Source of the DNA: Clostridia bacterium
GTDB lineage: Bacteria; Bacillota; Clostridia; Christensenellales; CAG-138
Direction: 5' to 3'
Assembly: GCA_017525875.1 (NCBI GenBank)
Contig: JAFXSG010000045.1
Span: 12,276 to 76,275 of the forward strand
Length of the DNA stretch: 64,000 nt
The notes beneath the pieces were generated by a model, which had not been told where the DNA came from, searched no databases, and saw only the letters and a list, made by a program, of their open reading frames with translations. A program made the translations under genes and the position numbers. This document shows positions 12,961 through 39,420 of this stretch, piece after piece (within the stretch, counting starts at the first letter, position 1; each line of letters starts with the position of its first letter).

Positions 12961-12985
12961 AAAGGCAAAGAAAAAACAGCCCGTA
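12961..12985. repeat. left flank of insertion: distal half of a tRNA-Gln-type terminator (25-bp copy of 39359-39383)
   Basis: aaaggcaaagaaaaaacagcccgta is identical at both positions. Confidence 0.9.
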
Positions 12986-13006
12986 CGGGCGCTCCGCATA
13001 AGGAAG
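12986..13006. repeat. left terminal inverted repeat / recombinase half-site
   Basis: cgggcGCTCCgcATAAGGAAG compared with the reverse complement of the right end, cacccgcGCTCCtgATAAGGAAG. Confidence 0.6.
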
Positions 13007-13049
13007 TTTTTAGGGAATGGTGCAGTCCATGGTGGGCTGCACCGTTTTC

Positions 13050-14717
13050 TTACGCTGATCTCTCGGATAATTCCGAGATGAGGGATCTGAGTTCTTCCGC
13101 TTCGGGGACAGTGAAAAGCCCGATGCCTGTGAAGTAAATATCAACGGCGACTGTTTTCTTACCGTTGACCTTTACAGGAGAATGGATCTCGATTCGGCGG
13201 ATAAGCGTATTCACAAGCTCCGGAGTGAGCTGTTTGACATCCGTTTGCTCTCTGACGGTTTTGAGGAGAAGACGAAGATCCGTCTTCTTTTGCTCCTCTT
13301 TCGCGAGCTCGGATTCGATCGCTTCCGTCTCGGTCTTGAGCGAATGCTGCTCGGCTTCATAATTGCCGCTCATGGTGACGAAGCGCTCATCGGAGAGCTT
13401 GCCGTTGACATTATCCTCGTAGATACGCTCGATCAGGCGGTCGATCTCCTTGATGCGCTTACGGTTATTCACGATCGCCTTCTCCATGCGCTTGAGATCG
13501 ACGAAACGGGACTGCTCTCGCTTCTGCTCCATCATGTACATGAAGACCGTTTCGTAGGAACGGACGAAATCAACGAAGCGGCTGATGCTTTCGAGGACGA
13601 TCCGTTCAAGGACCACATTACGGATATAGTGCGCGGAGCATGGTCCTCTGCCGGATTTGTAATTGGAGCAGACGTAATGCTCCTGCTTTTCCGTGAAGCG
13701 CTTCGATGCACAGAAGTACAGCTTTGCGCCGCAGTCAGCGCAGTACAGTAGGCCGGAAAAAAGGCTTGTCCTGCCGGTCGGCGTGGGACGGCGCTTGTTC
13801 TTCCGCAGCTCATGCACCCTCAACCAAAGCTCCTCGGGGATGATCGCCTCCTGCTTATTGGGAATGATCTGCAGTTCGTCCTCTGGAGTGGGAATGACTT
13901 TGTGCACCTTGTAGCTCACCGTCGTTGTTTTGAAATTCACAGCACAGCCGGTGTACTGACGGTTATCGAGAATATCGGCAACCGCATCACCGGACCAACC
14001 GCAGGGGATGGCTGGAGGAGGATTGGACGCCTTGCGTCCCATTGAAAGGAAATATTCGGTAGGCGTCGGTATCCTGTCTGCTTCCAGTATGCGAGCGATC
14101 TTGGTCGGCCCGATACCCGCAAGGCTGAGCGAGAAGATTCTGCGGACTACTTCCGCTGCAGGCTCGTCGATGTGCCAGATCTCCTTATCCTTCTCATCCC
14201 TTACGTATCCATACGGGACAGTCGTTCCGACGCGCTTGCCTTGAGCCGCTTTCGACGCCCAAACCGCCCGCACCTTCTTCGAGGCCGACGCCGCATGCCA
14301 TTCGTTGAAGATATTGGAGAACGGCATGAGCTCGGTGCCGGTGTTGCTTTCGGAATCCACGTTATCCTGAATGGCGATAAAGCGGATACCGAGGGTCGGG
14401 TACTTGATTTCGAGGTATTGGCCGACTTCGAGATAGTTCCTGCCGAAGCGGGAGAGGTCTTTAACGACTATCGTACTGATCTCTCCGTTCTCGGCCATTG
14501 ATTCCATCTCTCGGAAGGCGGGACGGTCGAAGGTGGTGCCGGAATAGCCGTCGTCGACGAAGAACTTGGGATGCAAGAGCCCGTTCTTCTTGGCATATGC
14601 CTGTAATATCTCCTTTTGATTGGAGATGGAGTTGCTTTCGCCCTCTCTGCCGTCGTCTTGACTGAGGCGGCAATACAGGGCCGTTATCTTTTCCTGCCCG
14701 GATGATTTGTTTTTCAT
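13050..14717 (-). CDS. large serine recombinase (TnpX/resolvase-invertase family)
   Basis: N-terminal [20 protein letters not shown] catalytic-Ser motif, a recombinase domain, the Zn motif CADCGAKLY...C..Y and a long C-terminal coiled coil. Start at MKNKSSG, preceded by GGAAAGGAG. Confidence 0.9.
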
Positions 14718-14794
14718 ATGGCTCCTTTCCACATCGGGCACAGTAAAGGCATAATTGACAATACCATGCCCGATGTATAAACTCAAATGTGCAG

Positions 14795-14983
14795 TCAATC
14801 GGTAAGCAGGAGCTTTTTCAGCAGATCGAAAACGCTCTGTTTTCCATCGGGATCGAAGTGGGCGTTCACGGTATAGACGGTACCTGACGCCTTAACGATG
14901 AAATGCATGGGAGCATTCGCGTCCTCGAAATCTTCGTGAGTCAGAAGGATGGGATGATCGGTATTGCGGTTATCGTTCATCAA
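14795..14983 (-). CDS. small conserved transposon-associated protein (TnpW-like size and position, unverified)
   Basis: 62-aa ORF immediately upstream of the recombinase and in the same orientation. Confidence 0.45.
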
Positions 14984-14998
14984 ATACGCCTCCCTTCC

Positions 14999-15835
14999 TC
15001 AGCGTTCCTCGCGCTGACGCTCAAGGTGGTTCCTGTAAAACTCACAGGCCTTGAGTATGAACGCCCTGGCGCGATCCGGGCTCGTATCGGGCAGATACTT
15101 CGAGAGGTCGCTCACGGGGATGCTGACGCGTTCCTTCTGATTGGGCTTCTCCTCGGCCATGATCTCCATGATCGCGTCCTCGGTGAGCTTGCCCTCGGCG
15201 CTGAGCCTTTTCATATGGCATGCCTGGGAGAGGGACGGCGTCGCCTGGGCGAAGCCGATCTCCGAGAATAACAGCTCCTGCTCCTCGGGCGTGAGGTACG
15301 AGAGCTCGACCGCGGGAGTGAATGCGATACGGCCTTCATCCACAAGGCGGAGAAGGTCGGGAACGAGGTGAGTTAGGCGGATGTAGCGCTGGATCTGACG
15401 GCCGCTTTCGCCTTCATCAACATCATCCCGCGACTTGTGGCCAACTTGTCCACAAGCGATATCCCGCTTTCCCTGCCGTGAAAGCGCTTCCAGCTTCAGC
15501 TTGTAAGCGAACGCCTTTTCGCTCGGCAGGATGTGCTCGCGGTTGAGATTGCTGTCAACGAGCGCGACAGCGGCCTCGTCCCTTGTAAGCTCGACTTCGA
15601 TAACGGGCACGGTCTTGAGCCATGCTCTCATAGCCGCGTGAGCTCTCCTGTGGCCGCTGACGATCTCAAAGCCGGTATCGACAGGCCGCACGATGAGCGG
15701 CACCATGACGCCGTGCTCGCGGACGCTCTCGACGAGGGCGTCCATTTCTTCATCGTCGCGCACCTTATACGGATGCCCCGTGAAGGGCTTGAGCTCCGCA
15801 AGGCTCAGTTCTTTTATTGTTCTGTTGTCTTTCAT
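14999..15835 (-). CDS. ParB/Srx N-terminal domain protein
   Basis: ELKPFTGHPYKVRDDEEMDALVESVREHGVMVPLIVRP...IVSGHRRAHAA matches the ParB-like nuclease domain signature. Confidence 0.8.
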   Translation of the reverse strand: MKDNRTIKELSLAELKPFTGHPYKVRDDEEMDALVESVREHGVMVPLIVRPVDTGFEIVSGHRRAHAAMRAWLKTVPVIEVELTRDEAAVALVDSNLNREHILPSEKAFAYKLKLEALSRQGKRDIACGQVGHKSRDDVDEGESGRQIQRYIRLTHLVPDLLRLVDEGRIAFTPAVELSYLTPEEQELLFSEIGFAQATPSLSQACHMKRLSAEGKLTEDAIMEIMAEEKPNQKERVSIPVSDLSKYLPDTSPDRARAFILKACEFYRNHLERQREER

Positions 15836-15861
15836 GTAAATCTCCTATTCTTTTTTTGTTA

Positions 15862-38319: not shown

Positions 38320-38355
38320 TACATAAGTGGATAATTCTTTTCGTCAAGTCAGTTG

Positions 38356-38706
38356 CTACTTGAGCACTATTTCTCGGATAACCTGTCCTTCAGCTCTCAC
38401 TCGGCAGGAGTTCATCGCGTGTATCCAGCCGAGCTGATTCCATGCTTTGAGGTCTTCGGTGACGCCTTCGGCTTTGGCGAGCTGGGATGTAATGAGGTCG
38501 ATCTGTTCCATAGCTTGTTGGTTAATGTCGATAAGGTGCTGTGTCAGGGTGTTCTCCATCAGCATCAGCGCAAAGGTGTCGGGCTGATGCTCCCTCAAAA
38601 ACTTCTTCCGCATCCGTCCAAATCGACCAATATCACCGGTCGGCTGGGGAGGGAGCGTGAGGTCGGGATAGTAATAGTCTCCGTGCTTGGTGTAAGTGAT
38701 TTCCAT
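38356..38706 (-). CDS. tnpV: TnpV-like transposon protein
   Basis: MEITYTKHGDYYYPDLTLP...GRFGRMRKKFLREH...LIDINQQAMEQ...KAWNQLGWIHAMN matches my memory of the TnpV family of Tn4451-type elements. Strong RBS AGGAGG. Confidence 0.7.
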   Translation of the reverse strand: MEITYTKHGDYYYPDLTLPPQPTGDIGRFGRMRKKFLREHQPDTFALMLMENTLTQHLIDINQQAMEQIDLITSQLAKAEGVTEDLKAWNQLGWIHAMNSCRVRAEGQVIREIVLK

Positions 38707-38721
38707 GTGAGCATCCTCCTT

Positions 38722-39012
38722 TTATGATTCAATGAATTCTTTGATGGGTTCCTGCATCGCTTCCAGCAGGCCGGTCATAATCCCCGCGATGAGAGGGACG
38801 GCAATCAGCAGACCGCTGACGGTCAAAAGTTGTAGCATGAGATCTTTTGAGCCAAGGCCGATGATCAGCAGGATCAAGTCATATGCGAGCAGCAGTCCTC
38901 CGCCTATCGCGAGCACGAACGCCGCCGCACTCGCAGCGAGCTTGAATACGAGCTTCAGTATCGCCAGCAGCAGCAATATCAGGGCAAGCAGTATTCTGAA
39001 AACGGTCCGCAT
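38722..39012 (-). CDS. small three-TM membrane protein
   Basis: Hydrophobic 96-101-aa ORF. Start probably MRTVF (39012), 7 nt after GGAGGA; the track ORF extends to 39027. Confidence 0.5.
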   Translation of the reverse strand: MRTVFRILLALILLLLAILKLVFKLAASAAAFVLAIGGGLLLAYDLILLIIGLGSKDLMLQLLTVSGLLIAVPLIAGIMTGLLEAMQEPIKEFIES

Positions 39013-39173
39013 AGTCATATCCTCCATTCATGATTCTGAAAATATGATAGCAGACCGAATTCGTTTTGACGAATGTGCGAGATGCTTTTCTCAAAAAGAA
39101 AACCGAGACAAGCGTAATGCTTATCTCGGGATTTCTTTGCCTTTTCCTGTGCGCTATAATCTGATTTGGATTA

Positions 39174-39196
39174 CTTCCTTATCAGGAGCGCGGGTG
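39174..39196. repeat. right terminal inverted repeat / recombinase half-site
   Basis: CTTCCTTATcaGGAGCgcgggtg mirrors the left end (12986-13006). Confidence 0.6.
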
Positions 39197-39233
39197 TGGC
39201 TGCTTTTCTTTGCTGGCTGCCGAACCTGGATTC
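39197..39233. repeat. displaced copy of the tRNA-Gln 3' end (T-loop to CCA) plus proximal terminator half; 37-bp exact copy of 39384-39420
   Basis: tggctgcttttctttgctggctgccgaacctggattc is identical at both sites. Confidence 0.9.
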
Positions 39234-39358
39234 CTTTTCGCTCATCGGCTCTCGTTCTCGCTCACTCCGCTTCGTACTCGGCCTGAGGCGAAAATCCGGC
39301 CGCGGCGAAAGCAACACCGTTGCTTCCGCTGATCGCGGCTTCGAATCCAGATGATAAA

Positions 39359-39420
39359 AAAGGCAAAGAAAAAACAGCCCGTATGGCTGCTTTTCTTTGC
39401 TGGCTGCCGAACCTGGATTC
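39359..39420. repeat. intact 62-bp reference copy (terminator hairpin plus last 20 nt of tRNA-Gln)
   Basis: It equals 12961-12985 joined to 39197-39233. Confidence 0.9.

Follow-up and report, generated by a model that had tools for sequence, protein, structure and literature searches.

Positions 12986–39196 of the stretch analysed here, a 64,000-nucleotide window on contig JAFXSG010000045.1 of a Clostridia bacterium, are very probably an integrative and mobilizable element (IME) that was inserted by its own DUF4368-type serine recombinase into the loop of a pre-existing second copy of a terminator hairpin. The boundaries of the insert are exact, the prior empty site is present in sister genomes, the inverted-repeat ends are common to relatives at other sites, and the gene content has been determined. 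Serine-recombinase elements of this class are known, and the present one, though cleanly delimited, is in essence an ordinary example. What stands out within that class, and goes beyond the original prediction made from the sequence of this window alone, is an apparent preference for terminator loops and a mismatch between the two crossover cores.

The insertion can be read directly from the junctions. The 25 nt at 12961–12985 (AAAGGCAAAGAAAAAACAGCCCGTA) are an exact copy of 39359–39383, the left half of a 62-mer at 39359–39420, and the 37 nt at 39197–39233 (TGGCTGC...CTGGATTC) are an exact copy of the adjacent right half, 39384–39420. Joined, the two recreate the 62-mer without a single difference. 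A tRNA-Gln(CTG) is placed at 39401–39474 and a tRNA-Val at 39669–39745, both on the minus strand, by ARAGORN and Rfam; thus the final 20 nt of the 62-mer are the 3′ end of tRNA-Gln. The other 42 nt fold into a long-stem hairpin with a 5-nt loop (−21.4 kcal/mol, z = −4.9) that scores as terminator-like on both strands in a terminator scan. The break is located within this loop, and the insert comprises 26,211 bp. Direct reading, pattern search and folding thus uphold, to the base, the earlier claim that a 62-mer had been split in its hairpin loop by 12986–39196. The original prediction had also asked whether the half-repeats might belong to a dispersed family. They do not: each half is found at only two places in the window, even when up to three mismatches are allowed, chance matches were absent from 100 dinucleotide-preserving shuffles, and a whole-window repeat search gave no further members of the repeat. 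A tandem duplication taking in the left flank was considered and rejected, as 12836–12960 is unlike the 125-bp spacer that lies between the two 62-mers on the right. The features of the two junctions are:

12961–12985, no strand: attL host arm, the left half of the interrupted second 62-mer and ascending arm of its hairpin; exact match to 39359–39383, and joined directly to the right half in L012, L176 and L177, where the site is empty.
12986–13006, no strand: left terminal inverted repeat CGGGCGCTCCGCATAAGGAAG, at the recombinase-proximal end; a 21-mer common to relatives at other sites.
13029–13045, plus strand: sub-terminal hairpin in the stretch that separates the recombinase stop from the terminal repeat (terminator scan), with an equivalent hairpin in essentially all 50 relatives.
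39174–39194, no strand: right terminal inverted repeat CTTCCTTATCAGGAGCGCGGG, by direct reading; homology to the right-end relative L137 stops at 39194.
39195–39233, no strand: attR, with TG at 39195–39196 followed by the right half of the 62-mer (descending arm plus a copy of the 20-nt tRNA-Gln 3′ end).
39234–39358, no strand: 125-bp spacer between the two 62-mers, outside the element and also present in the empty genomes.
39359–39474, minus strand: intact reference copy, consisting of the terminator hairpin (39359–39400) and tRNA-Gln(CTG) (39401–39474), by ARAGORN, Rfam, folding and terminator scan.

The uninterrupted second 62-mer is found at the same locus in three sister metagenome-assembled genomes (MAGs), L012 (GCA_017393325.1, contig JAFORK010000065.1), L176 (GCA_017414155.1) and L177 (GCA_017392115.1). 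L012 was reached by exact-protein look-up of the DUF4364 neighbour that is encoded just to the right of the tRNAs, and L176 and L177 through proteins that cluster with the 356-aa protein encoded to the left of the insert. In L012 the DUF4364 gene lies 791 bp from the gene of this 356-aa protein, and the sequence reads ...GAAACTAAAGGCAAAGAAAAAACAGCCCGTATGGCTGCTTTTCTTTGCTGGCTGCCGAACCTGGATTC..., that is, the uninterrupted second 62-mer, then a 124-bp spacer (one base shorter than the 125 bp of the window), and then the first 62-mer with tRNA-Gln. On alignment the joined flanks of the window equal all three empty sites base for base over both 62-mers. The interruption of a second copy by a mobile element, which had been proposed from the split repeat, can therefore be seen directly. 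Since the empty genomes carry both 62-mers, the 187-bp duplication is older than the insertion. The twin hairpin at 39359–39400 is identical to the target, and is unoccupied.

The filled locus is itself well represented. Identical filled attL and attR junctions occur in at least 12 contigs of different samples, drawn from ENA, NCBI and Logan, and some of these contigs, of 123–230 kb, span the whole element. The filled contigs are 99.7–100% identical to the window, while the empty genomes are diverged by ∼1.7% in the flanking DNA. This distribution suggests that the element was inserted once, within a single sub-lineage of an uncultured Clostridia bacterium from the ruminant gut. Look-ups of the exact TnpV and the exact recombinase returned no site other than this same insertion. 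Scanning a metagenome collection with a 34-mer of left flank and half hairpin gave no match, the species being absent from that collection, and a scan of a genome collection with the 356-aa flanking protein found no relative.

Both ends of the element are fixed independently by the points at which homology to relatives breaks off. BLASTN homology on the left begins at 12985/12986, and homology to L137, a right-end relative from a JGI metagenome, ends at 39194; thus the element consists of 12986–39194 plus a 2-bp core. The terminal repeats are imperfect 21-nt inverted repeats, with 14 of 18 flanking positions symmetric about the core, and the joined ends read GGAGCGC-GGG-[2 nt]-CGG-GCGCTCC. The 21-mer CGGGCGCTCCGCATAAGGAAG is identical in four relatives at other sites, and in a fifth (L179) its last base is changed; beyond the 21-mer the sequences are unrelated. 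A degenerate terminal-repeat pattern gave 89 matches in metagenomes, almost all due to chance, the real right-end junctions among them being only L137 and L161/L164. The sub-terminal hairpin has the consensus CGGTGCAGnCC...GGnCTGCACCG, followed by a T-run on the opposite strand, and because of this it could halt transcription reading into the element from the left.

The backbone genes of the insert are as follows:

13050–14717, minus strand: large serine recombinase of 555 aa, its 3′ end facing the terminus (Pfam Resolvase 4e-26, Recombinase 1e-17, Zn_ribbon_recom 6e-14, DUF4368 1e-18).
14795–14980, minus strand: open reading frame (ORF) of 61 aa, weakly TnpW-like (Pfam TnpW E = 7.8e-4, 19.6 bits, under the 25-bit cut-off), called and conserved in relatives.
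14999–15835, minus strand: ParB N-terminal domain protein of 278 aa (Pfam ParB_N 3e-16; NCBIfam parB_part 2e-21).
15862–17232, minus strand: MobA/VirD2-type relaxase (Pfam PF03432, E = 1e-35), with weak matches to NCBIfam TraI_MobP and SAG1250.
17211–17627, minus strand: NikA/MobC-like relaxosome accessory protein (Pfam NikA-like 5e-11; MobC_2 9e-6).
17695–17889, no strand: candidate origin of transfer (oriT) or operator region between mobC and the AAA_25 gene, found by repeat search, its function suggested only by its position upstream of mobC. It has a perfect 13-bp inverted repeat (17695–17707 and 17730–17742) and four copies of AAGGYTGCAAAA, direct and inverted.
17888–18946, minus strand: AAA_25 (RepA/KaiC-like) ATPase (Pfam AAA_25 9e-28).
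38356–38706, minus strand: TnpV (Pfam TnpV 7e-37).
38722–39012, minus strand: conserved ORF of 96 aa adjoining TnpV, called in all filled contigs, with no family match.

The start of the recombinase was set at ATG 14717 by its ribosome-binding site, and the exact protein is called in other assemblies; its translation has an R-L-S-Q-D-D motif near the N-terminus. The gene lies at the edge of the insert as had been claimed, with its stop at 13050, which we measure as 64 nt from the first base of the insert rather than 60 bp. Together with these recombinase domains, the quasi-palindromic joined ends and an intact attB without target-site duplication are hallmarks of an integrative element of the large-serine-recombinase type, and all of these are present; a further hallmark, one crossover dinucleotide common to attL, attR and attB, is lacking. 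Family scans of the insert ORFs with Pfam, NCBIfam and PADLOC returned no conjugation-pore or coupling-protein family. With a relaxase and NikA/MobC present and no conjugation-pore genes found, the insert is classed as an IME rather than a conjugative element. Pfam and PADLOC bear out the gene list drawn up from the sequence, namely the recombinase, ParB, relaxase, MobC, AAA_25 and TnpV genes, the ECF sigma factor, the DHHW/DUF4358 pair, the XRE-sigma4 envelope/ABC block and the defence operon.

The exact 25 + 37 split conceals an anomaly. The right-hand match extends leftward with one mismatch (GTgTGG against GTaTGG), such that 39194–39233 and 39381–39420 form a match of 40 nt at 98%; thus beneath the apparently perfect split there is one base that differs, at the place where the 2-bp crossover is expected. 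The core is TA at attL (12984–12985), TG at attR (39195–39196), and TA in the attB of all three empty sites. A serine recombinase should leave a 2-bp core shared by both junctions. Because the cores differ there is no 2-bp overlap, and the halves sum to 62 rather than 64. The exact reconstitution with zero overlap is thus a small departure from what such an enzyme leaves, rather than the signature expected of it. Other crossover registers (GT, CG, TG, AT and CA) were tried and rejected, as each needs at least one mismatch against attL, attR or the empty site, and only the TA/TG register falls on the symmetry axis of the joined ends. In the three relatives for which both junctions are in range the cores are identical within each element: AA/AA in L053, AA/AA in L079 and GA/GA in L067. 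Most recombinase lineages have a fixed core, one having AA in 12 of 12 events and others AA, TT or TC, while in the sub-lineage of the window the core varies among events (TA, AT, CA, TT, TT and TC).

Two histories could give these cores. A canonical TA × TA integration may have been followed by an A-to-G change at 39196, before the common ancestor of the sampled filled strains; we consider this a good possibility, falling only a little short of an even chance. Both attL and all three empty sites read TA, identical cores are the family norm in the paired relatives, a transition is the commonest kind of change, and the ∼1.7% that separates filled and empty flanks implies that there was time for a point mutation. 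Yet that mutation must have struck one of four core positions, for which the chance is at most ∼3–4% on the observed divergence, and the 62-mer halves themselves are without change. Moreover, TA is palindromic; a palindromic core removes the control of orientation, and serine integrases normally avoid such cores. Alternatively, a circle with a TG core could have been joined to a TA-core target across one mismatch, with replication of the heteroduplex giving a daughter that has TA at attL and TG at attR. Bookkeeping of the strands would predict just this arrangement, TA on the left and TG on the right of a single daughter chromosome. The relative L024, with a 92% identical recombinase, has a TG core (CA in the orientation of the recombinase), and such events would explain how cores change between sub-lineages; within that of the window the core varies by event. 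Against it, mismatched cores block the phiC31 and Bxb1 integrases at ligation, and only one such case is seen among four paired elements; we hold this second route to be conceivable, though on balance doubtful. We know of no experiment on the ligation of mismatched cores in the DUF4368 clade. Whichever of these histories holds, the copy in the window may no longer excise cleanly, since its cores are unlike and, in the serine integrases studied, unlike cores prevent clean excision.

How general is insertion into a terminator loop? Recombinases ∼92–95% identical to that of the window (at least 90% by clustering for L179) are found at five other chromosomal sites, L021/L031, L024, L032, L033 and L179. 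With the window this makes six loci, so that recombinases of at least 90% identity occupy more than three unrelated sites, as is expected of a multi-targeting enzyme. For L021, L031, L032 and L033 only left ends are available, and a search for TnpV homologues yielded no contigs to match up with the recombinase relatives; as far ends, L037 and L043 were discarded, since their 'flanks' are homologous to each other and are hence internal sequence. L179 is a 1.8-kb contig of GCA_017392115.1, the MAG that also holds the empty site L177, and in it the element end abuts a terminator-like flank (AGGGCGGCTCTTTTTTT) beside a convergent gene. Since both belong to one MAG, a sister element occupies another site in the same species.

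A single layout follows the recombinase stop in 56 recombinase loci (L031–L086): a hairpin, a 21–22-nt terminal repeat, the core, and then unrelated flank. A T-run (at least four T) starting 6–17 nt beyond the core is present in 44 of 50 distinct junction flanks, compared with 15% at random positions in the same loci, and the few right-end flanks available have an outward T-run too. The reconstructed target of L053 is a perfect hairpin of 15 bp whose 5-nt loop holds the core (−33.9 kcal/mol), and that of L079 is a weaker arrangement of A-run, hairpin and T-run, again with the core in the loop. From these junctions, the recombinase clade appears to target terminator loops. If a half-site is a GC-rich stem arm plus a T-tract, then palindromic bidirectional terminators would be natural attB sites. 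We found no account of such a preference in the searchable literature.

Other members of the clade were seen in passing. At 14403–17187 of L033, ∼2.7 kb past the end of the first element, there is a second, inverted segment of recombinase and ParB, 70–74% identical, which may be an adjacent or nested element. In a plasmid collection a 61% identical recombinase lies on an Enterococcus plasmid in an uninformative context, and DUF4368 recombinases of 46% identity (H2–H6) are annotated on large Enterobacteriaceae plasmids (Salmonella, Klebsiella, Enterobacter and Citrobacter); the clade thus also occurs outside Firmicutes.

These observations can be assembled into a mechanism. The recombinase very probably joined a circular form of the element, its ends fused as attP (CTTCCTTATCAGGAGCGCGGG-[core]-CGGGCGCTCCGCATAAGGAAG), to a palindromic bidirectional terminator hairpin, with exchange in the 5-nt loop of the latter. 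This hairpin belongs to the second copy of a 62-bp sequence, 'tRNA-Gln 3′ end plus terminator', that is present twice without differences, and the duplication came before the insertion. The recombinase would cut both partners at the central 2-bp core (12984–12985 and 39195–39196), as TnpX of Tn4451 does. The choice of this hairpin probably reflects the resemblance of its two arms, each with an outward T-run, to the two half-sites of the recombinase. Transfer from cell to cell would be provided by the element's own MobA/VirD2 relaxase and NikA/MobC acting at an oriT near 17.7–17.9 kb, using the conjugation pore of a co-resident element, and the ParB and AAA_25 proteins might help to keep the excised circle. 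A broader reading would combine the two unusual features: that in the course of evolution the loops of bidirectional intrinsic terminators became a generic 'safe-harbour' attB for the clade, the half-site being a GC-rich stem arm with a T-run ∼8–14 nt from the crossover, and that the window captures a rare integration of TG into TA that switches cores and locks the copy. Mismatched integrations would in this way switch the core dinucleotide and hence the target repertoire. We put this forward tentatively, and think it unlikely to be right in all its parts.

Other explanations of the locus have to be set against integration by the element's own serine recombinase. The locus adjoins tRNA-Gln, the repeat starts in the T-loop as the att sites of tRNA islands do, and at a further locus (L014) the sequence diverges right after the tRNA 3′ end. 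Each of these would suit a classical tRNA-targeting island, bounded by 62-bp direct repeats and moved by a tyrosine integrase. But the empty genomes already have both 62-mers, 125 bp apart, and the 26 kb interrupts one of them instead of being enclosed by the pair. Moreover, the insert encodes no tyrosine integrase, none being among the Pfam results for its ORFs, and its inverted-repeat ends are common to the serine-recombinase relatives. An island of this kind may fit the 125-bp spacer, but as an account of the 26-kb element it is very improbable. The element might instead be ancestral, and the 'empty' genomes the products of its excision. Excision by a serine recombinase restores attB exactly, so that polarity cannot be read from the sequence alone, and the MAG with the empty site L177 also holds a sister element elsewhere (L179). 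Yet the second copy in the empty genomes is identical to the first, TA loop included; the filled strains form a tight clade (99.7–100%) with the empty ones ∼1.7% away, which fits a recent single gain; and the mismatched cores would be expected to excise poorly. We therefore regard ancestry of the element as improbable. That the junctions are an artefact of assembly or binning is scarcely credible. All the data are indeed metagenome assemblies, and the repeated 62-mer breaks some contigs (L017 starts inside it), but independent assemblies of many samples, in ENA, NCBI and Logan, give the same attL and attR, and these include contigs of 123–230 kb that span the element from end to end.

Some points nevertheless weigh against the interpretation as a self-integrated IME, or against parts of it. 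The cores are not identical, as they are in all three paired relatives and in Tn4451, and a later mutation or a non-canonical event is needed to account for them. The oriT and mobilization are deduced from gene content only. No circular form or attP junction was recovered in scans of viral contigs and metagenomes with the terminal repeats, the viral-contig scans giving no match to either repeat. Judged by their sequences, all the filled genomes descend from a single event, so that their number is no sign that this copy is mobile at present. Lastly, the ORFs of 594, 479, 297 and 174 aa have no family match and could have a hidden function.

The locus also has an older history. The 62-mer repeat starts in the T-loop of tRNA-Gln and runs on through the terminator, like the att scars of tRNA-targeting islands. 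The duplicated 62-mer and the spacer are thus probably what is left of an earlier tRNA-targeting island, its att scars and a remnant of 125 bp. Between filled and empty strains the spacer has three to four single-nucleotide polymorphisms and one indel, while both 62-mers are invariant; searches elsewhere found nothing similar to the spacer. In L014, from another strain (ERZ28654088 scaffold_4840, 1–117), the right flank is 98.3% identical, and an entirely different sequence, with a hairpin of its own, sets in no more than a few bases from the 3′ end of tRNA-Gln, which suggests another island or a variant at tRNA-Gln. On the other side of tRNA-Gln, a full-length sub-threshold match to 6S RNA (RF00013, model positions 1–187, 32.2 bits against a gathering score of 46.4, E = 1e-4) lies at 39477–39665 on the minus strand, occupying the gap between tRNA-Val and tRNA-Gln. 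It may be a divergent 6S RNA that is co-transcribed with the tRNAs.

The remainder of the insert is made up of three blocks of accessory genes:

19531–26635, no strand: variable cargo module 1 (Pfam), with DUF4358 (20694–21176), DHHW (21173–22192) and ECF sigma (22201–22680) genes, proteins of 479 and 297 aa without family, and an XRE protein of 360 aa (25412–26494, minus strand); absent from L021/L031, with its left part in L033.
26626–33824, minus strand: envelope/ABC block (Pfam), encoding a CARDB-like protein (439 aa), an ABC ATPase (212 aa), a protein of 594 aa without family, DUF6034 (499 aa), an RsgI-like anti-sigma factor (441 aa) and XRE-sigma4 (150 aa).
34001–38168, minus strand: defence module, consisting of GajA (36516–38168), GajB (35396–36601) and PIN_8 (34001–35374).

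By BLASTN, 12986–19530 and 26636–31425 are common to L021 at 87–88%, and 19531–26635 is missing there; L033 shares the left part of module 1 at 92% identity, up to 24903, the point at which that locus stops. Thus the ∼19 kb of cargo in the original prediction has to be reduced, since one part of it (26636–31425) is a conserved accessory block, ∼87% identical in the closest relative, L021/L031, rather than unique cargo. In the defence module PADLOC identifies GajA (E = 1e-164) and GajB (E = 5e-92), and Pfam gives AAA_15 with an OLD-like TOPRIM domain and a UvrD-helicase. The adjacent gajA and gajB conform to the definition of Gabija, and form a predicted phage-defence operon. The PIN_8 protein (457 aa, Pfam E = 5e-48) has no PADLOC model, and the three genes possibly constitute a three-gene variant of Gabija. 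The block has 40% GC, against ∼55% for the element and chromosome, and is hence taken to be a recent acquisition. L137, a contig of only 2.6 kb, has no homology to the window to the left of tnpV, where the window has its Gabija block.

The locus provides an IME resolved to the base, with filled and empty alleles in natural rumen populations, and shows that a Gabija-plus-PIN operon and envelope-stress modules are carried by such elements in uncultured Clostridia. If the clade does recognize terminator hairpins, this would explain how 'multi-targeting' recombinases spread so widely without damage to genes; it would give a simple rule for locating their insertion sites in genomes, and inform their use as integrases for genome engineering. 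The TA/TG mismatch is in turn a natural test of how strictly core identity is required in this clade in comparison with the phage integrases.

How does the element compare with known systems? The DUF4368 domain is characteristic of a multi-targeting, TndX-like clade among the large serine recombinases (PMC10083194), and recombinases with this domain have been linked to IMEs (bioRxiv 10.1101/2024.01.18.576133). TnpX of Tn4451, the best-studied of the clade, performs excision as well as insertion by itself, between identical 2-bp cores and with no accessory directionality factor (PMC5704250), and by analogy a separate directionality factor is not expected for the recombinase of the window. With Tn4451/Tn4453 of Clostridium perfringens and C. 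difficile the element shares a DUF4368/TndX-like recombinase as the sole enzyme of integration and excision, TnpV, and possibly a TnpW-like ORF, whose match here is weak and below the cut-off. Both are mobilizable without a conjugation pore (here by gene content), and both have low or multi-site specificity for targets that resemble the joined ends (PMC5704250, PMC10083194). The original prediction of a Tn4451/IME-like backbone is right, as to Tn4451, only in the recombinase type, TnpV and possibly the weak TnpW, but fails in the relaxase module, the orientation of the recombinase, the core and the size. The relaxase of the window is of MobA/VirD2 type (PF03432) with NikA/MobC, where Tn4451 has the Mob/Pre (MOBV) protein TnpZ, and it is the 3′ end of the recombinase gene that lies at the terminus rather than the 5′ end as in Tn4451. 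The core is TA/TG, in contrast to GA at both ends and in the target of Tn4451; the distant relative L067 does have GA/GA. Finally, the element is 26 kb in length compared with 6.3 kb, lacks catP, and has ParB and AAA_25 in addition. It is thus not a strict member of the Tn4451 family.

By layout, compared by architecture only, the closest system is IME_Rho_tet of Roseburia hominis and other gut Clostridia (PMC12904643). Both have hosts among the gut Clostridia. In both, mobC, relaxase and recombinase are co-oriented with the recombinase last, and in both there are 21-bp terminal inverted repeats; the boundary lies 81–90 bp past the recombinase stop in IME_Rho_tet (PMC12904643) and 64 bp past it here. 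IME_Rho_tet carries tet(W)/tet(32) and is found mostly in MAFF2 ORFs of conjugative elements (PMC12904643), whereas the element in the window carries Gabija and envelope modules and occupies a terminator loop. The multi-targeting recombinases of Durrant et al. (the Cp36, Pc01 and Enc9 clade; PMC10083194) share the DUF4368 architecture and the use of many sites by close recombinases. Their conserved core of TT corresponds to AA on the other strand here, and they have A/T-rich outer positions (PMC10083194). Their targets were described as relaxed and AT-rich (PMC10083194), whereas the junctions analysed here suggest a structured target, in which a palindromic, GC-rich stem has a T-run on either side, as in a bidirectional intrinsic terminator. 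With the phage serine integrases phiC31, Bxb1 and A118 the recombinase of the window has in common the catalytic, recombinase and zinc-ribbon domains, the quasi-palindromic att sites, and exchange at a 2-bp core without duplication of the target. It differs from them in the C-terminal DUF4368, in the absence of phage genes from its element, and in belonging to a clade with many targets rather than one.

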